In this document: in pieces, positions 294-15,005 of the stretch | How the letters are laid out: each line of letters opens with the position of its first letter | Position numbering within the stretch: position 1 is the stretch's first letter | Virus record (IMG/VR): IMGVR_UViG_2537562190_000013 | DNA length: 43,776 nt | Direction: 5' to 3' (one strand) | Source of the DNA: a virus | Lineage: Duplodnaviria > Heunggongvirae > Uroviricota > Caudoviricetes | Translations under genes and position numbers: made by a program | Notes under the pieces: model-generated | What the model was told of the DNA's origin: nothing | Seen by the model: only the letters and a program-made list of their open reading frames with translations | The model's database searches: none

Positions 294-414
294 CGCAGGG
301 GTCGGCCCATTTGAGCTTCAGATAGGAACGTTTGAATTCCTTTCACAAAATACATCACATACTGAACGTGAACATTCCCACTTTGATCTTAAGGCCAAAA
401 AGTATGCAGGACTA

Positions 415-2133
415 ATGATTTTTAGGGATAGCTTGAGAGTATTACCTTATGGTCGAGTAGATAATGATTTCTTCCAGATAGAAGAAAGACGTTCATGGAA
501 TGCAGGGCGATATTATTGGTCTAATAGAAGGATTTTTGGTTATATTGGAATTACTCAATCCAGTAATAAAGAGCTGAAAGATAAGTCGGGGAGAGAGGGA
601 TTCATAAGAAACCAGGCTGCAAGAGAACTGAAAACTATTATATCTAATTTGTTAACTGAACTTGCTGATAGATTTTTTGGTTCACGTTCTGATGACCGTA
701 AAGAGCTTTTAGAACAAGTTAAGCGTGAAAAAGAGTTAAGAAAATCTGCTCAACAACAAGCTCGAAAATCAACACAAAAAAGTTTTTCAGAAGCTTTGAA
801 GAATCAGACACCAGTTCTTGATGCTTCCTTGGAGGCTGTTAAAAGGCTGAAAACTAAGCTTGATAAAACTGATGGTTCGTTAGATTTAAACTATCTTAAA
901 ATTATAGACAGTGATCTTACAAACTTAGATGCGTTGCGCAGTGAAATTAAAACGCCTATCAAACCTCCAAAACTTGGAATGTATGAAGAGAAATATAGAG
1001 ACTACAGAGATAAATTTAATGAGTTCTCTGCGTATATTCTACAAATGAAGTTAGCAATTAATAAACTTGATTCTGAATTAAATAAACTTGAGCCTTCATT
1101 GTCAGCGAAAAATCACCTTGAAAAAAATCAAGGTATTATTAATTCTAAACTAACTAAGTTTAATAACACGATAGAGGAGAAGATACATTCTCTTTTAAAA
1201 AAATGGGCCGATGAAATAAAGGTTGATCGAAGTGATTATTATGCTAAAACTATATCAGTTGTTGATTCAATAGATAATGATTCACAAATTGAAAATGTGT
1301 TTAATTTGCTCGATAGTTTATATGTTGAGTCAGTTGATACCCTAACTTTCAAATATCAATCAATAATAAAAGGTCTCGATAGATTATTTGAAGGTATAAA
1401 CTTAGATTCAGCATTCTCATTATCTGAAGAAGAACGCTCATATTTTGAAGAAAAAGCTAAAAGTTTAAACGCGCTTGCACAGTTAGGTATTAGTGTTGAG
1501 ATAATATCTCATGAACTTGAAGAAATGGATTCTATGGTAACCAGAGGACTAAACTCTCTTCCTACTTCTGTAAAAGAACACCCTGGTTTTTCATTGGCGT
1601 TAAATGCTCACAGATCGCTTACTCAACAAATACGTTTCTTATCACCTTTGAAAATATCAGGTTATCAATCCAGGCAGAGAATAACTGGAAAAAATATCAT
1701 GGATTATGTCCTGAAGTTCTTTGGGGAGCGTTTCGAACGGCAACGAATAACTATTGAATTTAGTGAAGAGTTTAAGCAAATCGCAATAACAGATATACCA
1801 TCAAGGATCTATCCTGTTTTTACTAATATTATCAACAATGCAATGTATTGGGTCAGTCTGTCAAATAATAGGCTCATAAAGATTGGTTTTGTGAATTCTT
1901 TGGTTATCATAGCAAATTCTGGTCCGGCAATTGATACCGATGATATCCCGCGACTATTTGAACTATTTTATAGCAAAAGAGCAAATGGACATGGGGTAGG
2001 TCTGTATCTATGTCGAGAAAACCTTGCTGTTGCACATCATAAAATATGGTATTTAGAACCTGATGAAGGCGATAACTATTTAATAAAAGATGGCGCTAAT
2101 TTTGTGATCCAGTTCAATGGAGTGGAGTTCTAA
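415..2133 (+). CDS. Cytoplasmic histidine-kinase-like protein: N-terminal coiled-coil-rich region, H-box-like ISHELEE, C-terminal HATPase_c (GHKL) domain
   Basis: 572-aa ORF; N-box-like NIINNAMYW, G1-like ANSGPAID and G2-like GHGVGLYLCRE motifs near the C-terminus; no obvious transmembrane segments; AT-rich codon usage; frame is open back to 334 with an in-frame stop at 331-333. Confidence 0.6.
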   Translation: MIFRDSLRVLPYGRVDNDFFQIEERRSWNAGRYYWSNRRIFGYIGITQSSNKELKDKSGREGFIRNQAARELKTIISNLLTELADRFFGSRSDDRKELLEQVKREKELRKSAQQQARKSTQKSFSEALKNQTPVLDASLEAVKRLKTKLDKTDGSLDLNYLKIIDSDLTNLDALRSEIKTPIKPPKLGMYEEKYRDYRDKFNEFSAYILQMKLAINKLDSELNKLEPSLSAKNHLEKNQGIINSKLTKFNNTIEEKIHSLLKKWADEIKVDRSDYYAKTISVVDSIDNDSQIENVFNLLDSLYVESVDTLTFKYQSIIKGLDRLFEGINLDSAFSLSEEERSYFEEKAKSLNALAQLGISVEIISHELEEMDSMVTRGLNSLPTSVKEHPGFSLALNAHRSLTQQIRFLSPLKISGYQSRQRITGKNIMDYVLKFFGERFERQRITIEFSEEFKQIAITDIPSRIYPVFTNIINNAMYWVSLSNNRLIKIGFVNSLVIIANSGPAIDTDDIPRLFELFYSKRANGHGVGLYLCRENLAVAHHKIWYLEPDEGDNYLIKDGANFVIQFNGVEF

Positions 2134-2134
2134 T

Positions 2135-3496
2135 ATGACAGTGGCAAATTATAATTCTCTTGTCCAGAAAACTTTCTGCGAAAATGCAATTCGTTCCGTT
2201 GTCATGATTGATGACGATTTTCTGACGTATTCTGAATCAATCAGGGCGTTGAATAACGAAGTTGATTTAGACTACAACAAAATTGACTCATCTAAACGAG
2301 CCGCTACTCTTGAGAGCTTTTTTCAATCTAAAAATATGATTTGTGATGTTGACAATGGTTCTGTTAATTTCGATGTGGATCGGATTAGAAAATCAGATCT
2401 TATTATTGTAGATTATCATCTTGATAATAATGCACCTGATAAAACACTTAAACTATTACAAGATTTGAAAGACTCCGATCATTTAAATATGATTGTAATA
2501 TATACTAGAGAGAATTTAGAAACGGTTTGGATGCAGATATCATCGACTCTCAAAGGTGCTCTGGATATCAACAGCTTGATCATTGACTACGATAATGAAG
2601 ATGTCCAAAGTTATTGGGAAGACGTTGTATTACCGAACTTAAATGATAATGGTAATAAAGCTCTCACAAGAGATGAAACAATAGCCTATATTAAAGACAG
2701 TAAGCCTTGTAGAAGAATTAAAAGATTAATACATGATGATGCTGTGTTGGAGGATCAAAAGGATAAAAACTTCATTGCAAAAATGATTGCAGAATATGCT
2801 GTGTCTAGAAATGCAATTATTTCTAGCAACACATCTGGCAATGTCATTCGGGGTGATGAAAGCGGAGTAAAATGGATTCAATGTGGTAATATCTTTGTCT
2901 CCCTATTTCATAAGGTTCAAGATGATCATGAAAACGATGGAGATAGGATTTGGCAAACTCTCAATGATTCTCTCATTGAATGGAAACCATCTTATTATCA
3001 GTTAATAAAATCTGAAATTCAGAATGCAATCGAAGCTGAGGCTTTATCTTTTGTAAATCATTTGGCTAACGATCATTACGGTCAAGCTGCGTGGTTAAAT
3101 GAGATATTAAAATCAGACTCGCCTGATATTAGATGTAGAAATATTGACTTTGTATTTGGTAATTTATCAGAAGAGCTTTATCAAAGACTTAAAAATAATA
3201 ATACGCTGGATGAATTTATCAAAAGTGTTTTTGATAGCTATTCAAATGAATACGCTAACAGCGGAGTTGCTGCATTGCTCCAATATTGCTCTTCAAAAAT
3301 GGATCTGCCATCAAATAATGATACTTATCACGAAATGTATCATGCTTTAAATATGAATTTGTCTTCAAAGAATTTTGAAGATGGTCATATTTCTACTGGC
3401 ACTATTTTCTTTGATACAGAGTCGAACAAATGGTATTTATGTGTATCTGCGGCATGTGATTTGGTTCCTACTCAGGGTAACGACCCTCACCATGTA
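2135..3496 (+). pseudogene. Receiver (REC)-like domain protein with large unknown C-terminal domain, 5' part; interrupted by IS629-like insertion
   Basis: ORF overlaps upstream gene (stop TAA 2131-2133, ATG 2135, GGAG upstream); REC-like motifs VVMIDDD ... DLIIVDYHL ... MIVIYT; the stop TGA at 3497-3499 is supplied by the first bases of the IS. Confidence 0.6.
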
Positions 3497-3538
3497 TGAA
3501 CCGCCCCGGGTTTCCTGGAGAGTGTTTTATCTGTGAAC

Positions 3539-4426
3539 TCAGGCTGCCAGATCATTATTTCCGATGGAAGCATAATAAGCTTTTTCTGCTTCTGCCGGAG
3601 GAATATGGCCCAGCCTTTCCAGCAATCGTCGATTGTTATACCAGTCCACCCACGTTAGTGTGGCCTGTTCCACTTCTGTCCGGTTTTTCCAGCTCTTACG
3701 GTGTATTACCTCCGCTTTGTAAAGACCATTGATGCTCTCAGCCATCGCGTTGTCATACGAGTCGCCAGTACTCCCTGTTGATGCCAGTAATCCGGCTTCC
3801 TTAAGCCGCTGCGTGTAGGCCAGCGATACATACTGAGAACCTTTATCACTGTGATGGATTGTGCCGGACGGCCGACGGGCCCACAACGCCTGCTCCAGTG
3901 CATCCAGCACGAATGTTGTTTCCATGGATGATGAGACCTGCCATCCCACGATGTATCCGGCGAACACATCAATGATGAACGCCACATAAACGAAGCCCTG
4001 CCATGTGCTTACCCAGGTAAAATCAGCCACCCACAACTGGTCTGGACGTTCTGCCACGAACTGACGGTTTACGCGGTCGCATGCGGCAACGGCTTTCCGG
4101 CTGACGGTAGTGCGGACCTTTTTACCCCGGAGAACACCGGCAAGTCCCATAACTGCCATGAGACGTGCCACAGTGCATCTGGCCACTCTGATACCTTCCC
4201 GTAACAACTGACGCCAGACTTTACGCACACCGTATACCTGGTGATTTTCATCGTATACGCGCTGTATCTCTTTCTTCAGCCAGTCATCGTGCTGCGCACG
4301 GGCACTGCGTTTATCCGGATGATGTCGCTGTTGCTGACAATGGTAATACGTTGACGGGGCAATATGCAGTTCGCTGCATACCGGTCCGACCCCGTACTGC
4401 TCACGCAGCTTATCCAGCAGTGGCAT
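3539..4426 (-). CDS. IS3-family transposase OrfB (DDE integrase core)
   Basis: 295-aa [16 protein letters not shown]...; DDE region ...SDKGSQY...YDNAMAESINGLYKAE... Confidence 0.85.
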   Translation of the reverse strand: MPLLDKLREQYGVGPVCSELHIAPSTYYHCQQQRHHPDKRSARAQHDDWLKKEIQRVYDENHQVYGVRKVWRQLLREGIRVARCTVARLMAVMGLAGVLRGKKVRTTVSRKAVAACDRVNRQFVAERPDQLWVADFTWVSTWQGFVYVAFIIDVFAGYIVGWQVSSSMETTFVLDALEQALWARRPSGTIHHSDKGSQYVSLAYTQRLKEAGLLASTGSTGDSYDNAMAESINGLYKAEVIHRKSWKNRTEVEQATLTWVDWYNNRRLLERLGHIPPAEAEKAYYASIGNNDLAA

Positions 4427-4752
4427 TATTTTTTCCAGAGGCGGTCGAACTCCGCCTTCGCAAAATAAGCGGAAGCCTGGCGAAGGATATCGTTACTGCG
4501 GCGCAGTTCACGATTTTCACGTTCCAGCTCTTTCAGACGCTGACGTTCAGCGGTGGTGAGTCCACCATCACCACTCCCGGTATCCCGCTCATGCTGGCGA
4601 ACCCAGACACGCAGAGTCTCCGGCGTACAGCCAATCTTTGGGGCAATGGAACAAATTGCCGCCCACTGTGAGTCATATTCATCCTGACTTTCCAGAACCA
4701 TACGAATCGCCCGCTGACGGACTTCGGGGGAAAAACGAGTATTTTTAGTCAT
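4426..4752 (-). CDS. IS3-family transposase OrfA (HTH, leucine-zipper region)
   Basis: 108-aa [22 protein letters not shown]...; overlaps orfB across an AAAAAA slippery stretch, typical of -1 frameshift-generated OrfAB. Confidence 0.85.
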
Positions 4753-4809
4753 CCTGTTTACCTCTTTCTCAGGGAGTTTAGTCTCCAGGATTTCCGGGGC
4801 GGTTCAGTA

Positions 4810-5196
4810 AGATTAAGTCCGCACAGGCTCATTAAAGTTCTGGAGCTTTTTAACGCCAGTCAGAGTAAAGCATTGCCATTTGCTGAACATTCGAAATATA
4901 TATATGTAATGCATAAAAATCAAAGAAAATATCTCTCTATTTTCGAAGGGGATAAAACGCTTCCTGTTGTTGATTATATGGTGGTGTTGAATCATGGAAC
5001 AACAGTTGATGGCGAAGAAAAAAATATTATTTCTGCCGTGTTTTTAAGTAATATGGATGGCAACGTGCAAAATGTTCCTGTCCGACTCAAACTTAAATCT
5101 CAACTGAGAACTGGTTATGCAGAAAGATATCAGGCTATAGCGTCTCAGTATAGCTCAAGGATTGGTGTGGATTATGTATCAATGATGCTACCATAA
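4810..5196 (+). pseudogene. 3' part of the IS-interrupted REC-domain gene (in frame with 2135-3496 once the IS and one GTA repeat are removed)
   Basis: Frame of 2135-3496 continues without stop from 4810 to the TAA at 5194-5196; the track ORF 4873-5196 is the tail of this frame. Confidence 0.6.
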
Positions 5197-5267: not shown

Positions 5268-5684
5268 TTATTTTTGTTTAAGTCTTCTAAGCTTCATGCA
5301 TTCTAATGAGAATAATAATAGAGTTGTGCTGTATATAAAGCCAGAGTTAGTTAATAACTTTAAATTTAATGCTTCAGGATTTTCACTGAGAAAGTGAAAG
5401 GCATAAACTAAGTATACAGCTAAAGTAGCCGTTCCAATTGTTGGTCCAATATCGCCTTGATCATGAGGTTCAAGGTTTACATTGAACTTGAAGATTAGCC
5501 ATTCAAATCCCCAAGTAAAAAAAACAACTAATATCATGGCTGCGAATAATTTCGCGATGTTATCTGCTGATGGATTCATCAGAACAGATTGTTTCTGAAA
5601 AAATTCACAAAGTGAGAGTCCGAAAAAAATAAAAAAAAGTGGTCTGGAACTAAATTTTTCAAAAACTTTGAATAGGGTTTCCAT
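5268..5684 (-). CDS. Small hydrophobic (putative membrane) protein, unknown function
   Basis: 138-aa ORF with several hydrophobic stretches (FFIFFGLSLCEFF, AAMILVVFFTWGFEWLIF, ATLAVYLVYAFHF); AT-rich. Confidence 0.45.
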   Translation of the reverse strand: METLFKVFEKFSSRPLFFIFFGLSLCEFFQKQSVLMNPSADNIAKLFAAMILVVFFTWGFEWLIFKFNVNLEPHDQGDIGPTIGTATLAVYLVYAFHFLSENPEALNLKLLTNSGFIYSTTLLLFSLECMKLRRLKQK

Positions 5685-5740
5685 TTTCTTTACCTTCAGG
5701 ATTATATTAGCTATTCTGATACTTAGGCTACCAGAGCATT

Positions 5741-6952
5741 TTATCTTTGAGCTTGAACGTAATCACTCCACCATTGCATCAAACTCTGTCGCTCTATCAG
5801 ATATTCTGCACGATTGTATGCTGCGATAATTTCATCTTTTTTCGAGTGGGCAAGCGCTGCCTCAAGAACTTCAGCTCTGAATTTACCAGACTCCTCTGCC
5901 GCTGTTCGTGCAATAGAACGCATACCGTGAGCTACAAGCTCGCCTCCGAACCCCATTCGGATGATAGCTGCGTTGGCTGTTTGTTCATGCATATGATTAA
6001 GAGGCGCTTTTATGCTGGGGAAAACCCATTCTCTATGCCCACTTATTGATTTCATTAATTCAAGGATGCGCAAAGCTTCTTTACTCAAAGGAACTTTGTG
6101 AAGCTTTTTCATTTTCATGAAATCAGCAGGAATGTTCCAAATGCTGTTGGTTGTATCAATATCAGACCACCTTGCGCGAACGGCTTCACCCGGACGAACC
6201 CATGTCAACAATTGCCATTCAATTAGCATACGTGTTTCCAACCGGATTGACGCATTCGTCAAAGATTCCATAAACCTTGGCAATTCGCTTGGGGGAAGGG
6301 CAGGCATATTTTGCTTTTTTGGTTTACTGAATCTTTGACCAAGGTTGTCAGCCGGGTTGAACTCAATAAGTTCTTCAGTAGCTGCCCACCGGAAGATTTC
6401 ATTCAGACGTGAAATGATACGGCGTAGAGTTTCCAATACGCCTCGTTGCTCAATAGGATCAAGGTGTTGTTTTAAGAGCTTAGGTCGGATCTCATTGATA
6501 GGGACATTACCCAGACCGGGAAAGACATTTCTCTCTAAGCTGCGCCAGATGTCTGCTGCATGGTCTTGTGAGATACCTGATGTCTTTACCTTCTCATCTA
6601 ACCATTTCCGCGCTACGGCTTGGAGAGTGTGCTCAGTAGCACTCTTTAATGCCTTCGCCTTATCGTTGTTATGGATTTGGGGATCAACACCATTTGCCAG
6701 AAAGGAGAGATATTCATCACGTAAGGCTCTGGCTCTTGCAAGGGTAAGGTGAGGATATGTCCCAAGGCTCATTTTGGTTCTTTTCTTGCTCACTGGTACT
6801 GCATACCTGAAATACCAATTTTTCTTGCCTCCTTTCGCCAAAGGAGCGATTCGTAGAATCAGACCATCACCGTCAAACAAGTTGATTTCTTTATCGGCTG
6901 GCTTGGTGCTTTTGATTTCAGTGTCAGTGAGCTTCTTAGCGATTTTTGCCAT
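5741..6952 (-). CDS. int: Tyrosine recombinase / P4-type integrase
   Basis: N-terminal arm-binding-like MAKIAKKLTDTEIKSTKP...LFDGDGL; C-terminal catalytic-domain-like motifs; ATG at 6952 has a GAGGG ribosome-binding site; the track ORF extends to 6994. Confidence 0.85.
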   Translation of the reverse strand: MAKIAKKLTDTEIKSTKPADKEINLFDGDGLILRIAPLAKGGKKNWYFRYAVPVSKKRTKMSLGTYPHLTLARARALRDEYLSFLANGVDPQIHNNDKAKALKSATEHTLQAVARKWLDEKVKTSGISQDHAADIWRSLERNVFPGLGNVPINEIRPKLLKQHLDPIEQRGVLETLRRIISRLNEIFRWAATEELIEFNPADNLGQRFSKPKKQNMPALPPSELPRFMESLTNASIRLETRMLIEWQLLTWVRPGEAVRARWSDIDTTNSIWNIPADFMKMKKLHKVPLSKEALRILELMKSISGHREWVFPSIKAPLNHMHEQTANAAIIRMGFGGELVAHGMRSIARTAAEESGKFRAEVLEAALAHSKKDEIIAAYNRAEYLIERQSLMQWWSDYVQAQR

Positions 6953-7117
6953 TTTGGGACCCTCGGTTTTTGGACCCTTCTTAGTGGGTCCCATTCAGGG
7001 TGCCATAACTCGTAGTTCTCAGCAATTCTCACTGGACGACAATAGACGTAAAAAAGCCCGCAGAGCTTGTGCTGTGTGGGCTTAGTAGACTTCATTGAAC
7101 TTCAAACAACTAAAAAG

Positions 7118-7149
7118 TGGTGGAGCTGGCGGGAGTTGAACCAGCGTCC
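7118..7149 (-). other. att core: 32-bp copy of tmRNA (ssrA) 3' end (T-arm plus acceptor stem plus CCA), not a complete gene
   Basis: Minus-strand reading GGACGCTGGTTCAACTCCCGCCAGCTCCACCA; sequence further upstream does not continue as tmRNA. Confidence 0.7.
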
Positions 7150-7239: not shown

Positions 7240-7905
7240 TTATGGATTCTTGCTTAAAAAATATTCGAAGTTATGGTTGCCAAGCACATACCTCATTTCT
7301 CCCCGTGTGCGGTAAAAAGAAGTTTGAATCTCATCAACATAGTAGTTAAAAAAAATCTTTAACATTTCGGTAGTCATCTTTTGCAAATGGGTTGACAGTT
7401 TAGCTGCATTACTTTTTGAATCAGACTTTAATAAATCTGGAAATGATGCTGTGATATTTAATTTAACTTTAGATGATGAGTGTAACCAGCCACATGCTTG
7501 TTTATACTGTGAATGCATGTACGCCCAGTTTTCATCAGTGTTGGTAGATTTAAGATTCTCGAAATCAAGAGTTCTAATTGTAATATCGAAATCCCCCCCG
7601 TTATCAACTTTTTGTAAGGATATACGTGCAAGATGTTCAATCATTGAGCGAAAATTAAGATGAAGATATCGCTCTCGTTTATGAAGTATCGCTGTAATTG
7701 AACTTAAAACATCATAAATAATACTTTTTATAAAGGTTTTGTGACTTATTTCTGGATGTGAGTTATGGATAAACTCCAGAAAAAGTACATGTTTATAAGC
7801 CGATGTAAGATTGTTTTCGGTGCGAATATCGACCTGAAATGATTTTATCATTGTGATAAATTCTTTCACGTCTTTTCTAAATCCATGTGGGTCTCTTTGA
7901 AGCAT
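7240..7905 (-). CDS. Hypothetical protein, third gene of ParA-like operon
   Basis: 221-aa ORF; start ATG overlaps upstream stop (TAATG); AT-rich; no recognised motifs. Confidence 0.55.
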   Translation of the reverse strand: MLQRDPHGFRKDVKEFITMIKSFQVDIRTENNLTSAYKHVLFLEFIHNSHPEISHKTFIKSIIYDVLSSITAILHKRERYLHLNFRSMIEHLARISLQKVDNGGDFDITIRTLDFENLKSTNTDENWAYMHSQYKQACGWLHSSSKVKLNITASFPDLLKSDSKSNAAKLSTHLQKMTTEMLKIFFNYYVDEIQTSFYRTRGEMRYVLGNHNFEYFLSKNP

Positions 7906-8318
7906 TATTTTCTATCCTTCTTCAAAAGAGCATTAATCCACGTACCTACATCTCGATTTGCATTACGTTTGACGTTACTTTTTTTAAAAGTAAGTGAGTT
8001 TTCATTATATCCAATAATAAATTTGTCAGTTTTAAAATACTCTGATGCTTTATATATGCATTCTTTAATGTCTCTCTCGCTCATATTTACAAGATTACGG
8101 GTAAGTCTAGCGCATAATAAAGTTCTTGACTTGATGACGTAGTCTAAGAAACTTAATCCAAATACATTTTTTACGAATTCTGCTGCATCTTCATTTTTAA
8201 CAAAAATTTCCCTAGAATAGATTGCTATTGTTATCAAACCAATAAACGCTTCTTTTGACGAGGGCTTCTTATAAACCAATGTCTGTAATAATTCGAGGTT
8301 GTTACTATTTTTATTCAT
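7905..8318 (-). CDS. Hypothetical protein, second gene of ParA-like operon
   Basis: 137-aa ORF overlapping ParA-like gene by 8 nt; AT-rich; no recognised motifs. Confidence 0.55.
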   Translation of the reverse strand: MNKNSNNLELLQTLVYKKPSSKEAFIGLITIAIYSREIFVKNEDAAEFVKNVFGLSFLDYVIKSRTLLCARLTRNLVNMSERDIKECIYKASEYFKTDKFIIGYNENSLTFKKSNVKRNANRDVGTWINALLKKDRK

Positions 8319-9162
8319 CTTCCCCCCCCGTTTGCACTTCTTGGATCCGACTTAAAAACTCTTCACAAATCGCTTTGATATATTTTCTGGATGATTTATA
8401 ACTTGATGATATATTACCTCTACCACCCACCATCAAATCCTGTACAAACTTCAACTGGTTATCAAAAAAGTATAGTTCATTAAAAGGTTCAGTACTTTCA
8501 AAGTCTGTCTTTAGCTTTTTTGTCTTTTTTGATAGATTTTCTAGGGTATTAGTATAAATAAAACCAAGGTTTTGAATGTTTTTATGGTCATAATTATCTT
8601 GAATGTTTTCTATTACGCTTAAAAGACTTGTCGCACCTAAAATTGAGTAGTGGTCAATTTTAACTGGCACAATATAATAATCTGAAGCAACGAGAGCTGC
8701 ATCAGTAAATAATGAAATGGTTGGTGGGCTATCGATCAAAATGAAGTCATATATATCTCGAAGCTTATGTTCTTCTATAAAGCGTTTTAGCTTATGTAAT
8801 CTTGCCGCAGGTTGTTCAATATCAAATATTGTATTAATATCACCAAAAATCATATCTAAGTGCTCTGACATCTTGATGATAATTTCATCAGGAGTGACCT
8901 GCTGAACTTTACCCGTTAAGCTTGATTTTGTCTCGAATATTCGTCTGATGGTTTTTGTATTTTCTAAGTGATCAGCTATATACTCTTTCACTCGATCATA
9001 TTTACTAAGTATTGACTGTGTAGCGTTAAATTGTGGGTCAATATCGATAATTAATACCTTTTTATCCATGAAGTTTGCAAGATATTCAGCAATGCCGACG
9101 CATAAAGTTGTTTTACCAACCCCACCTTTCATATTTATGAAACTTATTACTGGTGTAGTCAT
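8311..9162 (-). CDS. ParA/MinD/Soj-family P-loop ATPase (small, type Ib-like, no N-terminal HTH)
   Basis: Deviant Walker A MKGGVGKTT, A' motif IIDIDPQ, Walker B FILIDSPP; GGGA ribosome-binding site. Confidence 0.75.
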   Translation of the reverse strand: MTTPVISFINMKGGVGKTTLCVGIAEYLANFMDKKVLIIDIDPQFNATQSILSKYDRVKEYIADHLENTKTIRRIFETKSSLTGKVQQVTPDEIIIKMSEHLDMIFGDINTIFDIEQPAARLHKLKRFIEEHKLRDIYDFILIDSPPTISLFTDAALVASDYYIVPVKIDHYSILGATSLLSVIENIQDNYDHKNIQNLGFIYTNTLENLSKKTKKLKTDFESTEPFNELYFFDNQLKFVQDLMVGGRGNISSSYKSSRKYIKAICEEFLSRIQEVQTGGEDE

Positions 9163-9412
9163 TTTATCCCTCTAATTTATACTTCTTAAACAAAAATTTA
9201 AATGTTACATGTAAGTGAATTTACTTATAACATTTTTTTTGAAACAATAATACTGTTGTTTTATCAGGGGGATGGCATTTTTCAATGGAATAAATCTATA
9301 AGGGGTATGCTCATAATTGTAAAGAATACCTATTCAAGCGTGGATTTGTGGAGGACCTCTCGTTTTGAACGAAATAGGCTTCTTTGAATAACATGCTTTA
9401 CCTTGCTCAAGG

Positions 9413-10588
9413 CTACTTTTTGCAATTACTTGTGAGCGTTGTTGAGCTGTGGTTGTCATAATCACTCAAGTAACGCCCATAATGACGAAACAACATTTCG
9501 GGCCCCTTATGCCCCATCTGCCCTGCTAGCCAGAAGAGATTAGCTCCTTGGCTAATGTACTTAGTAGCATAAGTGTGCCTGGTCTGATATGGGTTTCTGT
9601 AGCGAATACCTGCTTTTCGCAATGTTGGCACCCATGCTTTTTTCCTGATTGCATCAGCACTTGCCCAAGGCTTATTGGTCTTTGGATCTTCAAAGACCGT
9701 AGCATCTTTCATGAACGTAAATGGCTTCTGATTTATCAGCGCCAACATTGCCTCTTCTGTCAGTTCAACTTTACGAGTACCGGCTTTTGTTTTGGTCCCT
9801 TTGATAACACCAACAACACTTGCGCTCTGGACATGTGCTGTTTTTCCAACAAAGTCGATATCACGCCATCGAAGGGCACATAGTTCAGAACTACGCAGGC
9901 CTGTATGTATAGCGAACCGGAACAGATTTTCCCATTGTTTGTTTCCGGCTGCTGCTAGTAATGCATCAACTTCTGCTGGTGATAGCGGATCAACCACATA
10001 GCTGCTTTCTGCTTCTGACTTATCACTTTGGTAGCGCGAAGCTGTTACTAACGATACGGGGTTAATTTGAAGTACCCCATCGGTCACGGCTTCATCAAGT
10101 GCTGACCGCAGGAAAGATAACTGGTTGCGAATGGTTTTTAAGGTTGTTTTCTGGCTTTGAATCCACGCTTTCAGGGTTGCTGGTGTTAATTCACTTGCAG
10201 GGCAAATGTGAAGTGAGGCTAACGCACTACGGCATTTTTTATAGCCACCAATCGTAGAGGGTGAAAGTTTTCTTGTTTCGCAGATTTCAAGATATTCGTC
10301 CAGGTACATCTTTACCGTTTTGCCTGCAGCAGCATTACCAAAAATTTTCAAACGAGCAGAACGGGGAAAATATTCTGCATAAATGAATGTTCCCCTTTCG
10401 ATCTTATTATGGATTTCGCCGAGTGTACGCTCGGCGTATTTAATGTTCTTTGGTGTTACTTCCAGATTGGAAAGCGGCTCACGACATCTAACTCCTTTGT
10501 AGGTGAAAGTTATATTGATCGTTTCGCCCTGGCGGTGTTTCCTGATTGTTACGCCGCGCGGTAGTTTGAGCAGTTTTGTCTGGCCCAT
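9413..10588 (-). CDS. int: Prophage tyrosine integrase
   Basis: 391-aa ORF with C-terminal catalytic-domain-like motifs (...HTGLRSSEL..., ...TRHTYAT..., ...LAGQMGHK...); overlaps the upstream xis-like gene. Confidence 0.85.
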   Translation of the reverse strand: MGQTKLLKLPRGVTIRKHRQGETINITFTYKGVRCREPLSNLEVTPKNIKYAERTLGEIHNKIERGTFIYAEYFPRSARLKIFGNAAAGKTVKMYLDEYLEICETRKLSPSTIGGYKKCRSALASLHICPASELTPATLKAWIQSQKTTLKTIRNQLSFLRSALDEAVTDGVLQINPVSLVTASRYQSDKSEAESSYVVDPLSPAEVDALLAAAGNKQWENLFRFAIHTGLRSSELCALRWRDIDFVGKTAHVQSASVVGVIKGTKTKAGTRKVELTEEAMLALINQKPFTFMKDATVFEDPKTNKPWASADAIRKKAWVPTLRKAGIRYRNPYQTRHTYATKYISQGANLFWLAGQMGHKGPEMLFRHYGRYLSDYDNHSSTTLTSNCKK

Positions 10589-10755
10589 TTTGCAACCTCA
10601 CTAAGATCAATCCACCTCTCCTTAACGCCTTCAACCTTTAAAACCTGAACACCTTCACGCCAAACACCGCGCTGTACACGTTTGTTTATTGCTTCAGGAG
10701 TTTCGCCAGTTTCTTTGCAATAAGTTGAGATAGGAACACAATCGAGGTTCAGCAT
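10549..10755 (-). CDS. xis: Excisionase-like small DNA-binding protein
   Basis: Small basic ORF overlapping the int 5' end, the usual xis-int arrangement. Confidence 0.6.
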   Translation of the reverse strand: MLNLDCVPISTYCKETGETPEAINKRVQRGVWREGVQVLKVEGVKERWIDLSEVAKWARQNCSNYRAA

Positions 10756-10814
10756 ATGTTTCTCCACTTAGCCCGCTGCACATGGGCAGTAATATCAAAT
10801 TCCAGTCCTGATAA

Positions 10815-11030
10815 TTAATTTTGTTCTCTGGTTGCTACTTGTTTTATTGGCCTGATGCTGTCCAGTAGCAGACGGCGACGCATGTTAGGTGCACCCCAAC
10901 GGTAACCAGTCTTTTTGTCGTAGGATTCACAACGTCCGGCAACCCAGGACGTTTCAGTGGAATGTAATTTCATCCGCTTTTCACCGTCTCGGGTGATAAC
11001 AATTCCTGTATGAGTTTTTATCACGCTCAT
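10815..11030 (-). CDS. Hypothetical early-left protein (YfdT-like)
   Basis: 71-aa ORF, stop/start coupled to the next gene. Confidence 0.4.
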   Translation of the reverse strand: MSVIKTHTGIVITRDGEKRMKLHSTETSWVAGRCESYDKKTGYRWGAPNMRRRLLLDSIRPIKQVATREQN

Positions 11031-11389
11031 TTCTTAGTCTCTGGTGCTTTCGGCATTACTGCCCAGTGAGTGATATTGACGTTTTCAAGGTCCCCGACCT
11101 GAAATGTCCACTGCCATTCTCCGGTTTCTTTTTGTCCCCAGGTGTACCAGAGAGAACGCCAGCCAATCAGCCAGCCTTCTCCGTTAGCATCAAATAACAG
11201 AACACTTTCATTTGCTGGAGGCAGTTCAGCTGACACTGGTATTATTTTGCTTTCCAGTGCCGCACATTTAGCTTCAAGCGCGTCGAATTTACGTACCAGG
11301 TACTCAGCATTTGTTTCGTTCACTTTCAGATCTCGCGGTACACATCTCCCACGAAGAAACCCTTCCATTTCGAAAACATTCATGCGCAT
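11027..11389 (-). CDS. Prophage protein with DUF551-like C-terminal region (YfdS-like)
   Basis: 120-aa ORF; Trp-rich C-terminal segment WLIGWRSLWYTWGQKETGEWQW. Confidence 0.5.
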   Translation of the reverse strand: MRMNVFEMEGFLRGRCVPRDLKVNETNAEYLVRKFDALEAKCAALESKIIPVSAELPPANESVLLFDANGEGWLIGWRSLWYTWGQKETGEWQWTFQVGDLENVNITHWAVMPKAPETKK

Positions 11390-11928
11390 TTGCGTAACTC
11401 CGATAACTCGTTAAAACGTTCCATAAACATCCCGTAGGCATGGCCCGGTGCCAGTGGAATCACGTTGAACATCTCTGTTGCCGGGATGCCTTCCAGTACA
11501 GGCCAGAAAGAGCCATCATCAAGCCCGAGATCGCGGCGTTCGGTTGCCAGCATGATGAGATCGGCATATTTCACAGGCGTGCTCATAACCGGGGGTAACC
11601 CGTATTTCTCACGGATTACGGCGTCTATTTTTTCTTCCATCCGTTTATAGTCAGGAAGAAGGCGTTTCAGTGGTGCGGGGATGTCCTGGCAATACGCTTC
11701 TGTTGCATCATGCATTAACGCTTCAAAAGCAAATTCCTGCGGTACCAGCTGGCTGCAAAGCACCGCATGTTGGGCGACGCTGTAGAAGTGTGAAAGATGG
11801 CCGGCAAAGCGACAGATATTTGAAAGGGAAACCGCGATATCGTTAATATCGATGTTGTCTTTATTTATCCTGTCATAATAAAAATGCTTCCCGGAAAAAG
11901 TTTTAATAAATGACATTTTGTTCTCCAC
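11380..11928 (-). CDS. yfdR: HD-domain phosphohydrolase (YfdR-like 5'-deoxynucleotidase family)
   Basis: H..H and HD motifs (VAQHAVL, LMHDATEAY); translation matches recalled CPS-53 YfdR. Confidence 0.65.
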   Translation of the reverse strand: MENKMSFIKTFSGKHFYYDRINKDNIDINDIAVSLSNICRFAGHLSHFYSVAQHAVLCSQLVPQEFAFEALMHDATEAYCQDIPAPLKRLLPDYKRMEEKIDAVIREKYGLPPVMSTPVKYADLIMLATERRDLGLDDGSFWPVLEGIPATEMFNVIPLAPGHAYGMFMERFNELSELRKCA

Positions 11929-12044
11929 GTTATATGCGCTGCACCGCGCTGAATTTTGGTTAAAGAAAACCCTCGCCTTCAGGCGATTATTGAGTCAATT
12001 ACGTTTCCATAAATGCCCCCGCAGGGGCATTTGCGGTAATGAAA

Positions 12045-12869
12045 TCAGGCGGTGAAAGTCCCAATAAAGGTTTCTACTTTGCTGTCCTTGAATTTCTCAA
12101 CAAGCAGATCACGAAATTCGTTAGCCATATCTTCCTGCACCGCTTCCAGCTGAATAATGCGTAGAACCAGTACCGGACGATCGCCAGTGATAATGCTGAG
12201 GCGTAATTTAAACGGACGTTCTTTCAGACCTTCAAACGGAACGCATTTAAACTCAAATGCCACTGGCATAATGTCTTTGGTCTTCGCTTCGACAGACTCC
12301 ATCAGGGAGCGTTTGCCGCTGAAGTCATTATCTTCAAAATCAGCAGTCTGGTTTGCTTCAATCGTGATTTTACGGACCGCCGCAGCCGCTTTTGTTGCCT
12401 GAATGGTGTCACCATTAGCATCAAAGCCCACAAGGTAGTCGGCCCAGTCTTCAATCCATTCTGCCAGTGACTTCTGGGAGTTACGCTCGCCATTAACAGA
12501 CAACAGAGCAGAGAACGGCGCTGCCTTTTTCAGTTTGAGAGTGGCGGTGTTATCTGCGTGACCTGGTTCATCAATAGTACCCAGGTTAAGCACACTGACG
12601 GCACGCATATTATCAGCATCGATAAAGCAGCGGGTGCCTTCATCTGCAAGATCTTTAGAATAACGGGTAAAGTCATCGATGCTGGCAGTGGAAAGCGCAC
12701 CACGGAAACGGAAGCGATTTAAATTAAATTTTTCCAGATCATGAATGCGGAAATTTTCAGGTAATGCCACTGCGTCGGCACCAATCTTACTGATAATTTC
12801 ATTAACACCCTGAGCAGAAATAAGGGCATGGATTTGATTAATTGCGGTTGCGTCTAAGTTCTGAGACAT
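12045..12869 (-). CDS. yfdQ: DUF2303-family prophage protein (YfdQ-like)
   Basis: 274-aa ORF; recalled similarity to CPS-53 YfdQ. Confidence 0.55.
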
Positions 12870-12933
12870 AATAAGTCCTCACTATATAAAATATTCAGTG
12901 ATGAGATAAATAATCAGTTAATTAAAAACGATA

Positions 12934-13314
12934 TTAATGACCTGCTGCGCGGAGTTTTCCGTCAGGTTCACCGGCAAGAGTCAGTAATTGTCCCTGGTCT
13001 TCCTGCAGAATAGTCAGGCGACCACCGCGATTGACATACATCGGCGTTTCGGTGGTGTCTTCTTCAGAAATTTTCCCGCGGTTAGTCGGGCGAACATATG
13101 AGAGTTTGTGTTTGATTTTCACACGGTTCTCATCAAATGGTTCGATTTCCAGGTTGAGTGAGACCTTACCTTTGGTTTTCGTGTTCATCACACCGGAAGC
13201 GACTTCACTGAGAACTGCGCCGATTTTGGTTTCAAATACGCCGCCGTCCAGCTCCCCGATAAATGCCTGCACATCAGTACTGCGTTCGCTAGCCATTTTG
13301 CTGCTCCTCATCAT
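12934..13314 (-). CDS. Hypothetical early-left protein (YfdP-like)
   Basis: 126-aa ORF. Confidence 0.45.
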   Translation of the reverse strand: MMRSSKMASERSTDVQAFIGELDGGVFETKIGAVLSEVASGVMNTKTKGKVSLNLEIEPFDENRVKIKHKLSYVRPTNRGKISEEDTTETPMYVNRGGRLTILQEDQGQLLTLAGEPDGKLRAAGH

Positions 13315-13733
13315 ATCGACCCTGCAAGGCCGATTAGTTTCTCCACAAAACAGAGAAGAACACCTGCGGTGGCAGCCGCCCGGATGGATTGGGTTATGAG
13401 CCCGTCGTCCGGTGATGCTCTTCTCTGTTTTGTAAAAAGGACGCTACCAGCCGGAAGCAAGGGTACAAACTGGTACCGCCAGGACTACACACAGCATAAA
13501 GTTGTGGTGCCGGGTGCCTCCCGGTGCCTGGCGAAGGTTGCACACCAGACGGGTGGGTATCCACAGAAGGTCGACTGTCAGCCTCAACCTTAACCCGCGT
13601 GCGCTGAGCCGCATTCACCACAACGCTAAGGATTCTCTTTGGTTGAAAATACTTAGCTGTTATGTGCCTGTCTTTTCACCACTTCAGGCTCGGTGGTATC
13701 CTTTTAAGCCCGTATACATAAAAGGAAAATCAA

Positions 13734-13979
13734 ATGACTTTTGATGAAAAAGAACTTGATAATGCAATTAATAAAATCATCGTAACGTCGCTCTTTTCCT
13801 GTCTCAGCGACACTCAGCAGAAACGGTTCTACGAATCGGCTTTCAACATGATCGAGCGTTGTTGTTTCTGCGATGCCGACGAGTTACCTGAAAAAATCAG
13901 GAAACAGTTGGCTGATGCTCTTCGAGTGCGACTTTCTGACCAATTTTCTGAAATGTGCTCTCCGAATTTGGACAAATAG
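13734..13979 (+). CDS. Hypothetical small protein
   Basis: 81-aa ORF with AAGGA ribosome-binding site 7 nt upstream; convergent overlap with 13897-14172. Confidence 0.4.
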   Translation: MTFDEKELDNAINKIIVTSLFSCLSDTQQKRFYESAFNMIERCCFCDADELPEKIRKQLADALRVRLSDQFSEMCSPNLDK

Positions 13980-14172
13980 AAAAAGGCCATTTCCATTCAG
14001 GGTCTGATGGAAATACTTCAGCCTGTTCCAAAGCACGGCGTAAAGAGAACACAACTCCAGCCATAATCTGATGTTTCCCATTGGTCCAGCTATCGCCGCT
14101 CTGATCTACAGGGGCGGCTATGTCGTATGACCAAACGACTTCACAGTTATTGTTTAAAATCTGGACTTTCAT
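13897..14172 (-). CDS. Hypothetical protein, first gene downstream of the putative leftward early promoter (N/rex position), not N-like
   Basis: ATG at 14172 with AGGTG ribosome-binding site; 91 aa; no arginine-rich motif. Confidence 0.45.
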   Translation of the reverse strand: MKVQILNNNCEVVWSYDIAAPVDQSGDSWTNGKHQIMAGVVFSLRRALEQAEVFPSDPEWKWPFSICPNSESTFQKIGQKVALEEHQPTVS

Positions 14173-14299
14173 TTCATACACCTGCTTTAACATGAGTGCC
14201 TGATGGCACAACATGACTCAACGAATCATCCTGGACTTCATATGCCCCAGGCGGCTACTTCGTGGGCGTCCTGCCTGTTCGTTATCTTTGATATAAAAT

Positions 14300-14313
14300 C
14301 TAACTTAACTTAG
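14300..14313. promoter_or_regulatory. Operator-like site CTAACTTAACTTAG (oL-like) overlapping a candidate leftward promoter
   Basis: Shares the CTAA-N5-CTTAG pattern with the two sites in the cI-cro intergenic region. Confidence 0.45.
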
Positions 14314-14378
14314 TTATTATGGCAAGAGAAAACACCAAACTTTTCTTAGTTCGGTGCCTTAGTTAGAGAAGAGAGGTC

Positions 14379-15005
14379 TTAGAGTTCGTATTGAACTCCT
14401 TTGACTACACCAATGATAAGGCAATTACCATTGATAGGGATGTTGGGATACCGAGGATTTAATGGCACTAAAAACTTTTGAGGGCCATCGATGACTAATT
14501 TTTTTACTGTAGCTTCGTTTGTTCCATCAAGTCGAGCGATGACTATTTTTCCATGACGAGGTTCTGCATCTGGATCTACAATCACTGTTGCGCCTTCTGG
14601 TATTGTTGGGAGGCCATTAGGGTTAGTCATGGAGTCACCTTTAACCTCTAATGCAAATGAGTTATCACCAATCTTTAATGATGTATCTACCCACTTGTCC
14701 ACTTCACTAAACACTTCTGCTGCCCTGCACTCAGTAAACTGCCCAGCCTGAACCCACGATATTACAGGAACTCTGCGCATGTTTGTGACGAGTTTGCCTT
14801 CAAACTCAGCACCATAAAGAATGTAATCTATTGACGTATTGAAGAACTTCGCTAATTTCGAAAGTGCCTCCCCACCAGGGGTATTGATGTCTTTCTCCCA
14901 GTACCCCACAGCAACGTCGCTTACTCCACAAAATTTACCCAATTCTTTCTGGGACGTTCCGGTAACTCTTCTCAGAGCTTTTATACGCTGACCAACCGTT
15001 TCCAT
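14379..15005 (-). CDS. cI: CI-like prophage repressor (N-terminal HTH, C-terminal S24 LexA-like peptidase domain)
   Basis: HTH segment QKELGKFCGVSDVAVGYWEKD; S24-like GDSM serine motif and C-terminal Lys (VKKL); divergent from a cro-like gene. Confidence 0.85.
   Translation of the reverse strand: METVGQRIKALRRVTGTSQKELGKFCGVSDVAVGYWEKDINTPGGEALSKLAKFFNTSIDYILYGAEFEGKLVTNMRRVPVISWVQAGQFTECRAAEVFSEVDKWVDTSLKIGDNSFALEVKGDSMTNPNGLPTIPEGATVIVDPDAEPRHGKIVIARLDGTNEATVKKLVIDGPQKFLVPLNPRYPNIPINGNCLIIGVVKGVQYEL

Follow-up and report, generated by a model that had tools for sequence, protein, structure and literature searches.

A Decayed Remnant of the HEF_HK/Response_reg_2 Kinase–Receiver Family in an ssrA-Integrated Island

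Near the start of a 43,776-nucleotide stretch of viral DNA (Caudoviricetes; IMG/VR record IMGVR_UViG_2537562190_000013; the whole stretch is called the window below), a gene for a histidine-kinase-like protein and a gene for a receiver protein lie in what we read as the decayed end of an island integrated at ssrA. Our overall explanation, held with moderate confidence, is that the pair is what is left of a three-gene cargo, a triad of DNA methylase, kinase, and receiver protein, and that the intact family works by a mechanism resembling restriction-modification. The comparisons that follow establish the anatomy of the locus, its decay in this strain, the conservation of the triad, and the conservation of its catalytic residues. 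Judged from intact homologues, the former cargo comprised a C5 methyltransferase, a 988-aa soluble kinase, and a 582-aa protein in which a receiver is joined to a family-specific domain of 320 aa. The intact kinase consists of an N-terminal MORC-like GHKL ATPase domain (HATPase_c_3), a coiled-coil middle, the HisKA-like HEF_HK domain, and HATPase_c. In Escherichia coli, an event at the boundary with an IS3 insertion sequence (IS) removed the methylase and kinase codons 1–376, and, because the lost GHKL motifs are invariant across the family, the system as it stands cannot work.

The truncated kinase gene

The kinase gene (gene 1) occupies positions 295–2133 on the plus strand and corresponds to codons 377–988 of a 988-codon gene with the domain order HATPase_c_3, HEF_HK, HATPase_c. 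Public annotation by the Prokaryotic Genome Annotation Pipeline (PGAP) begins the gene at an internal ATG at 415 and reports a 572-aa "ATP-binding protein." A first-pass annotation of the window, made from its letters alone, had assumed an intact gene starting at 334 or 415, with an IS3 copy ending 120 bp upstream of it. The reading frame, however, is open from 295, with no stop codon back to the IS3 end at 293, and it closes with the stop codon at 2131–2133. From 293 onward, the window maps at 99.3% identity to an intact locus (L003) from position 11127 of that locus, inside the 988-codon gene. Because the frame is open to the IS3 end and the DNA maps inside the longer gene, IS3 truncates gene 1 and does not merely lie upstream. 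Salmonella, Klebsiella, and Serratia have 99%-identical homologues with a length of 988 aa, which carry HATPase_c_3 (PF13589), HEF_HK (PF19191), and HATPase_c (PF02518). The intact version of the island represented by L003, in which the triad spans 8812–14717, holds, in this order, smpB, an integrase, a 138-aa gene, the receiver protein, the 988-aa kinase, and a C5 DNA methylase. Measured against it, the window copy lacks kinase codons 1–376, which encode the entire MORC-like GHKL ATPase domain, the upstream C5 methyltransferase, and all that lies past it. No C5 cytosine methyltransferase is found in the island within the window, where IS3 stands at the boundary, although one is present in the intact version; the N-terminal HATPase_c_3 of the predominant "group 1" architecture is likewise absent from the window and present in the 99%-identical 988-aa homologues. 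On these matches, the window copy is best classed as a degraded member of the HEF_HK/Response_reg_2 family. The first-pass annotation had called the pair decayed but open to reconstruction in silico; it is decayed, and since 376 kinase codons are lost, the invariant GHKL domain among them, and the methylase is gone as well, the system is not rebuildable from the window alone.

What remains of gene 1 encodes, as had been proposed, a soluble histidine-kinase-like protein. The HEF_HK (DHp-like) domain spans 1480–1656 on the plus strand, with the H-box His at 1510–1512 (His366 of the 572-aa product) followed by Glu at 1513–1515, and the HATPase_c catalytic domain spans 1798–2073 on the same strand, with the N-box Asn at 1825–1827, an Asn (not Asp) in the G1 box at 1915–1917, and the G2 box from 1987. 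In Pfam, this HATPase_c scores 42.3 bits against a cut-off of 26.4 (E = 1.1e-10), and the solved structures closest to the C-terminal catalytic domain are those of ThkA (3a0r, 3a0t) and FixL, genuine sensor kinases.

The misplaced start codon recurs in public records. Kinases annotated as 572 aa in several genera (proteins P0079–P0088) share their internal Met start with the truncated E. coli protein, and one locus (L013, 3993–6983, from Salmonella enterica GCA_009468465.1) is annotated as 572 aa, yet its full 996-codon frame is intact and free of stops. Automatic annotation seems to have taken over a wrong start from the abundant E. coli remnant, and such calls may inflate the published "group 2" architecture, which lacks HATPase_c_3. 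A 5.6-kb contig labeled "MAG Bacteroidales bacterium" (DAIPZW010000118.1; L015) matches the E. coli remnant at 99% identity, truncated 572-aa kinase and integrase included; it is probably Escherichia DNA that was wrongly binned with a Bacteroidales metagenome-assembled genome.

The interrupted receiver gene

Gene 2 follows gene 1 on the plus strand, and both are AT-rich (about 33% GC), as first described. The overlap reported with that description is not needed, with the gene 1 stop at 2131–2133 and the annotated gene 2 start at 2135, 1 nt apart. The gene is in two parts: 2135–3496 on the plus strand (codons 1–454) encodes the Response_reg_2 receiver and the start of the C-terminal domain, and 4810–5196, also on the plus strand (codons 455–582 and the stop), encodes the rest of the beta-rich C-terminal domain, including the invariant Arg571 and Gly573 and the near-invariant Asp575. 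Between them, on the minus strand at 3497–4806, lies a 1310-bp IS629-like element of the IS3 family with terminal inverted repeats, orfA (4426–4752), orfB (3539–4426), and a frameshift pseudoknot recognized by Rfam (4355–4471). It splits the gene after codon 454, is flanked by a 3-bp duplication, GTA, at 3494–3496 and 4807–4809, and is 95.6% identical to the IS629 annotated in AJ304858; the split by IS629 had been read correctly at first pass. Joining 2135–3496 to 4810–5196 works as suggested there and yields 582 aa, not the estimated 588 or so, a product 2 residues off the intact E. coli protein P0121.

The rebuilt protein matches Response_reg_2 (PF19192) over residues 25–181 with 109.1 bits against a cut-off of 27 (E = 3.7e-31). 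Its active-site codons, predicted from sequence and all on the plus strand, are those for Asp26 and Asp27 (2210–2215), the phospho-acceptor Asp93 (2411–2413), Thr124 (2504–2506), and Lys260 (2912–2914). The residues take the places of a receiver layout, in which strand 1 is followed by Asp26/Asp27 and strands 3, 4, and 5 end with Asp93, Thr124, and Lys260, respectively, with a helical insertion of about 110 aa before strand 5. The N-terminus of gene 2 is confirmed as a true receiver fold. Including the helical insertion, the receiver reaches about residue 260 and the C-terminal domain measures about 320 aa, so the receiver and the unrecognized output domain of the first-pass annotation both stand, and its figure of about 450 aa for the latter does not.

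A three-gene unit with invariant catalytic residues

The HEF_HK and Response_reg_2 families were defined by computer analysis by Bellieny-Rabelo, Pretorius & Moleleki, in a study that included E. coli sequences and contained no functional experiment (Genome Biol Evol 2021, PMC8011034). These authors reported that the two genes are linked in 91.6%, that the kinases are soluble with HATPase_c_3/HEF_HK/HATPase_c as the predominant architecture (34 of 222 kinases in their count lack HATPase_c_3), and that C5 methylases, Vsr, HNH_2, and restriction-modification genes are enriched around the family (PMC8011034). The window pair belongs to the same family, with both Pfam models (PF19191/PF19192) above cut-off, and adjacent genes, a soluble kinase, and links to C5 methylase and Vsr are common to the published pair and the window family; the window copy differs in being a truncated, IS-disrupted remnant. 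The pair is not a new family, being already in Pfam and in the 2021 paper.

Forty-six loci from a species-level genome collection were combined with six found earlier, and all neighboring reading frames of these 52 loci were clustered. The receiver protein is present in 52 of 52 loci, the kinase in 48, and one methylase cluster in 47, with the gaps in the kinase and methylase counts arising mostly from short contigs. Integrases are the next commonest neighbor (8 of 52 loci), HNH_2 nuclease genes occur in 6 of 52, and no separate nuclease gene is conserved among the 52 loci. Gene order is methylase–kinase–receiver, or kinase–receiver and then methylase in either orientation, and most loci have the methylase upstream within one operon. 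The methylases sampled are all PF00145 C5 enzymes, and the methylase of intact loci matches the PADLOC model MTase_II at 7e-80. In one locus from a Caulobacteraceae genome (L053, 3240–5039), the triad methylase is fused to an N-terminal Vsr mismatch endonuclease; this union of a 5-methylcytosine writer with a repair enzyme for deamination damage underlines that the mark is 5-methylcytosine. Hosts include Gamma-, Alpha-, and Betaproteobacteria, Planctomycetota, Opitutaceae, and Myxococcales, and the carriers include an integrative conjugative element, Tn7-like transposons, and integrase islands, with SIR2/helicase genes next to the module in some cases. The homologues are mobile-element cargo and not the housekeeping regulators with a DNA-binding output that the first-pass annotation had named as the contrary outcome. 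Some loci have an XRE/C-protein-like gene or an HNH_2 nuclease nearby, and an XRE gene occurs, among the loci examined, only in the Tn7-like loci of Acinetobacter.

The catalytic residues are as constant as the gene content. Across 45 diverse full-length kinases, the GHKL domain keeps Glu32, Asn36, the DxGxG motif, and the GxxGxG motif invariant, and the histidine-kinase core does likewise with His782-Glu783 (45 of 45), its N box, and its G2 box. Among 49 diverse homologues of the receiver protein, Asp26, Asp27, Asp93, Thr124, and Lys260 are invariant. With its ATPase, His, and receiver residues invariant, the family looks competent as an ATPase joined to a phosphorelay, and the E. coli deletion removes a part that the family always keeps. 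The G1 box (DxGxG) of the kinase core varies at one position, with Asp in 23 of 45 kinases and Asn in 22 of 45, all other ATP-binding motifs being invariant; Asn marks the enterobacterial, Acinetobacter, and Aeromonas clade, to which the window codon at 1915–1917 conforms, and Asp marks the rest of the family. To the published description, our survey adds that methylase, kinase, and receiver protein form a strict three-gene unit, that no nuclease gene is conserved with the triad, that the C-terminal domain is apparently confined to the receiver-fusion architecture, and that some "group 2" kinases result from truncation or from errors of gene calling.

The output domain

A profile built on receiver-protein residues 262–582, run against 1.84 billion representative proteins, retrieved 666 relatives. 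Nearly all of the best 150 are 560–680 aa long with the domain C-terminal behind a receiver, the shorter members among these 150 resemble fragments, and no other architecture occurs among them. Modeled alone, the C-terminal domain (predicted local distance difference test score of 82) forms an all-helical bundle followed by a beta-rich domain and a C-terminal helix. Asn406, Gly422, Cys441, Arg571, and Gly573 are invariant in the domain, and Asp442, Pro445, and Asp575 are near-invariant. A Foldseek search of the C-terminal model against the PDB gave no meaningful match, and a profile search of PDB sequences, seeded with the receiver-protein alignment, turned up a single chance match. Neither Pfam nor the PDB yielded a match to a helix-turn-helix (HTH) or winged-helix family for the C-terminal domain, and neither the kinase nor the receiver protein showed a PD-(D/E)xK, HNH, GIY-YIG, or PLD domain in Pfam, PDB profile, or Foldseek searches. 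Nothing specific came from PADLOC or NCBIfam for the two proteins, the full-length kinase, or the neighboring genes. A resemblance of the modeled beta domain to the CcdB/MazF toxin fold is a lead only, and hhalign of the C-terminal profile against approximate CcdB and MazF sequences was negative.

Comparison with known systems

The first-pass annotation had likened the pair to Detocs (DtcA, DtcB, DtcC) and, in noting that no separate histidine phosphotransfer (Hpt) gene and no purine nucleoside phosphorylase (PNP) effector could be recognized, had left room for a Detocs-like phosphorelay immune system without either. The third protein of Detocs is a receiver-only buffer, not an Hpt. A soluble kinase, a receiver fused to a seemingly non-DNA-binding output domain, and a mobile island would all suit such a reading, and the general logic of kinase-to-receiver phosphotransfer controlling a non-transcriptional effector is the one thing in common. 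We nevertheless consider it highly improbable. PADLOC-DB v2.0.0, whose Detocs coverage is unconfirmed, gave no Detocs match but two spurious weak ones (PD-T4-6, E = 0.03; C3a59, E = 0.003), and Pfam finds no PNP domain in the product of gene 1 or gene 2, as had been noted at the outset. No third phosphorelay gene of the receiver-only buffer kind is conserved among the 52 loci, where the sole conserved third gene encodes a C5 methylase, and the kinase bears a MORC-like GHKL ATPase in place of a repeat-type sensor. Intact copies of the kind that the first pass had proposed to look for, perhaps with an Hpt neighbor, do exist in loci with the 988-aa kinase, and their conserved partner is the methylase instead of a phosphorelay gene. 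With a C5 methyltransferase as the conserved third gene, the family is restriction-modification-like rather than Detocs-like; the methylase and the MORC-like ATPase, obligatory here, set it apart from Detocs.

The N-terminal GHKL module of the intact kinase, a HATPase_c_3 domain whose ATP-binding motifs are intact and whose gene adjoins a cytosine methylase on mobile DNA, fits the concept of paraMORC ATPases in restriction-modification operons described by Iyer, Abhiman & Aravind (Biol Direct 2008, PMC2292703). The paraMORCs of that account have helicases and RE-fold, HNH, or TIR domains as their partners (PMC2292703), whereas in the present family the module shares a polypeptide with a histidine-kinase core and has a receiver protein as its partner. 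The window contains no such GHKL domain.

The nearest validated relative is Ambrosia, with which only a distantly related kinase is held in common. Ambrosia consists of AbrR, AbrA, AbrB, AbrC, and AbrD, that is, an XRE regulator, an N6 methylase, the GHKL/kinase protein AbrB, the 209-aa receiver AbrC, and an HNH nuclease, and all five genes are needed against Pseudomonas phages, including Asp60 of AbrC (bioRxiv 10.1101/2025.09.30.679545). The AbrB protein cluster also holds HEF_HK proteins, and the supplement of that study states that the DefenseFinder Type II REase profile flags proteins of this cluster (bioRxiv 10.1101/2025.09.30.679545). In a BLASTP comparison of kinase P0006 with the first 399 aa of AbrB, AbrB behaved as a collinear distant homologue, with 32% identity over 120 aa in the GHKL domain (E = 6e-11) and 33% over 76 aa in a second segment, the RDxxRVxPYG region (E = 4e-6); the window lacks the first of these segments. 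AbrC, by contrast, aligns with the 582-aa receiver protein at an hhalign probability of 0.2% and has no counterpart of the 320-aa domain. The Ambrosia methylase is an N6-adenine enzyme and the family methylase a C5 enzyme (PF00145), and neither the HNH nuclease nor the XRE regulator is conserved in the family.

Two further candidates were set aside: MADS, whose paper has a histidine kinase only as a flanking marker gene, and the subject of the Vibrio cholerae WASA paper, which is paraMORC3/Shedu and not the HEF_HK family. A figure legend in the DefensePredictor study gives an unvalidated HATPase/REC prediction, which may or may not belong to the HEF_HK family. A literature search on HATPase_c_3 or GHKL domains in defence found nothing relevant.

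Proposed mechanism and competing models

We propose, tentatively, that the intact family is a restriction-modification-like immune or exclusion module. The methylase would mark host DNA with 5-methylcytosine, and the GHKL/MORC-type ATPase of the kinase would engage DNA and report DNA that is unmarked and hence foreign. The kinase would then autophosphorylate at His782 and pass the phosphate to Asp93 of the receiver, and phosphorylation would free the receiver protein's C-terminal domain to act as the effector, a toxin or nuclease of a fold not yet recognized. We assign the effector role to this domain because no other conserved gene could supply the activity. That the methylase and the ATPase domain of the kinase were lost together in E. 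coli fits, and does not prove, a system that is harmed by loss of the methylase alone. A bolder form of the proposal, which we put forward with greater reserve, is that the intact triad suffices by itself as an immune system of an as yet undemonstrated kind, in which a DNA-engaging MORC-like ATPase reads the host's 5-methylcytosine mark and His-to-Asp phosphotransfer fires an effector domain of unseen fold that is fused to the receiver. If this is true, phosphotransfer replaces direct coupling between ATPase and nuclease, and, unlike Ambrosia, the system needs no separate nuclease or transcription factor.

Several points weigh against this mechanism. No experiments exist on the HEF_HK/Response_reg_2 family, and the HEF_HK match of gene 1 is marginal, at 26.3 bits against the Pfam cut-off of 24.1. 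The authors of the Ambrosia study favor transcriptional control by the two-component module and found that the methylase of that system does not protect phage DNA (bioRxiv 10.1101/2025.09.30.679545). Finally, some 550 E. coli genomes retain a remnant whose receiver gene is intact; this could reflect residual function or only recent common descent.

The Ambrosia work also supplies the main rival model, one of transcription control, in which the kinase and receiver form a regulatory two-component system that induces the linked methylase or other restriction genes on infection and the C-terminal domain binds DNA and is not an effector. In Ambrosia, reporter genes in the cluster were induced on infection and AbrC was described with a winged helix (bioRxiv 10.1101/2025.09.30.679545), and both observations would suit a regulatory role here, as would the all-helical bundle predicted for the first half of the C-terminal domain and the XRE/C-protein-like or HNH_2 genes near some loci. 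Such a role would, however, call for a DNA-binding output and for something to regulate. The C-terminal domain matches no HTH or winged-helix family in Pfam or the PDB, AbrC has no detectable relationship to the receiver protein, and most loci lack a nuclease to be regulated (HNH_2 in 6 of 52), so that only the methylase, mostly upstream in the same operon, is conserved. We regard the regulatory model as unlikely.

A second rival keeps the circuit and changes its purpose. The triad could be chiefly a selfish addiction or stabilization module of its mobile element, with the methylase as antidote, the kinase and receiver protein as post-segregational killer, and defence incidental. This differs from our preferred restriction-modification-like module only in selective rationale, the biochemical circuit being the same, and the CcdB/MazF similarity is backed by neither Foldseek nor hhalign. 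We think it quite unlikely that addiction is the chief role.

Distribution and decay in E. coli

A survey of 5426 complete E. coli genomes placed the remnant in 561 of them, always on the chromosome, at no less than 99.8% identity, with both reading frames open, and it lies with ssrA on one side and the ygaQ/gab region on the other. The IS629 insertion in the receiver gene is found in only 12 of the 5426 complete genomes, mostly of serotypes O103:H2 and O121. These numbers invite the question of whether the IS629-free remnant, a 572-aa kinase core with a 582-aa receiver protein, is still an autonomous two-component module of the "group 2" kind that does without HATPase_c_3. Its near-identical sequence and open frames in those 561 genomes, the intact DHp, catalytic, and receiver domains, and the 34 of 222 kinases counted without HATPase_c_3 (PMC8011034) would all be accommodated by that reading. 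The missing GHKL motifs are nevertheless invariant in all 45 full-length kinases examined, at least some of the 572-aa "group 2" annotations are gene-call artefacts over an intact 996-codon frame, and the native promoter and start codon are lost. The near-identity of the E. coli copies points to recent descent over selection, and the receiver gene has been struck by IS1 and by IS629 in different strains. An autonomous remnant is accordingly improbable in our estimation, and we return to the reading of a dead locus.

The DNA had in fact been deposited before. GenBank AJ304858.2 describes prophage CP-1639 and its chromosomal integration site in E. coli O111 strain 1639/77, and it labels a "remnant integrative element" that holds intA, two hypothetical proteins, and a "histidin kinase-like protein." Record and window contain the same DNA, at 99.8% identity, but in the record the receiver gene is uninterrupted and no IS3 stands at the junction. 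The annotation does not state which parts of the element are missing. As a dead remnant of a computationally described family, the locus is an ordinary finding.

Boundaries of the island and neighboring genes

The right end of IS3 occupies positions 1–293 on the plus strand and consists of the 3' part of orfB (48–263) and a terminal inverted repeat that ends ...TGGGTAGGATCA at 293; this base is both the IS3 end and the deletion boundary of the island. In strain EcWJ, PGAP annotates an "IS3-like element IS3 family transposase" at the same place, between a ygaQ fragment and the truncated kinase gene, and the 3-bp flanks of that IS3 are TCT on one side and CGC on the other. Such unequal flanks do not fit a simple insertion. 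Strains O103:H2 12009, O103:H2 FWSEC0007, and O111 1639/77 lack the IS3 and have a different small scar each, exactly at the kinase/ygaQ junction (coordinates compared: L001, 7720–9000; L002, about 8990–9003; L006, about 8935–8950; L061, about 2720–2745). The differing scars suggest an IS3-bearing ancestor and independent imprecise losses of IS3.

The description of the island as integrase-linked held up. Downstream of the receiver gene lies a minus-strand gene for a predicted membrane protein of 138 aa with approximately four hydrophobic segments (5268–5684). It has no Pfam or PADLOC match, occurs in 6 of the 52 loci, all enterobacterial, and is a component of the enterobacterial island outside the conserved module. 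It is followed by a P4-type tyrosine integrase at 5741–6994 on the minus strand (annotated start 6952) with Arm-DNA-bind_3, Phage_int_M, and Phage_integrase domains. The integrase stop in the window (5741–5743) falls six codons short of the end of the 409-aa coding sequence annotated in EcWJ and FWSEC0007 (window 5723–5743), a mismatch that is a minor allele difference or an annotation inconsistency. A 32-nt copy of the ssrA 3' end at 7118–7149 on the minus strand is the attachment-site repeat that bounds the island, and a second island and a prophage lie beyond it. ARAGORN and Rfam found no complete transfer-messenger RNA in the window, the 32-nt repeat being the only part of ssrA present.

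Just past the ssrA repeat, a second AT-rich block of three genes occupies 7240–9162 on the minus strand and adjoins a second integrase (9413–10588) and a lambdoid prophage. It encodes proteins of 221 aa and 137 aa without Pfam or PADLOC match and a ParA-like AAA_31 ATPase with a weak PADLOC match to the candidate PDC-M28B (E = 2e-7). This block may be prophage cargo.

Significance

A locus that resembles a near-intact novel phosphorelay defence pair has proved to be a twice-broken remnant, and for the window the value of the analysis is corrective. Roughly one in ten complete E. coli genomes has the remnant at ssrA. The intact family, on the other hand, is worth testing from its enterobacterial copies. 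Because its only conserved partners are the C5 methylase, the MORC-like kinase, and the receiver with its 320-aa domain, for which no relatives are known, the effector activity must reside either in the kinase or in the 320-aa domain. With its near-identical intact copies in Salmonella, Klebsiella, and Serratia, the family is open to direct testing, and these copies would show whether bacterial MORC-type ATPases can signal by phosphorelay.

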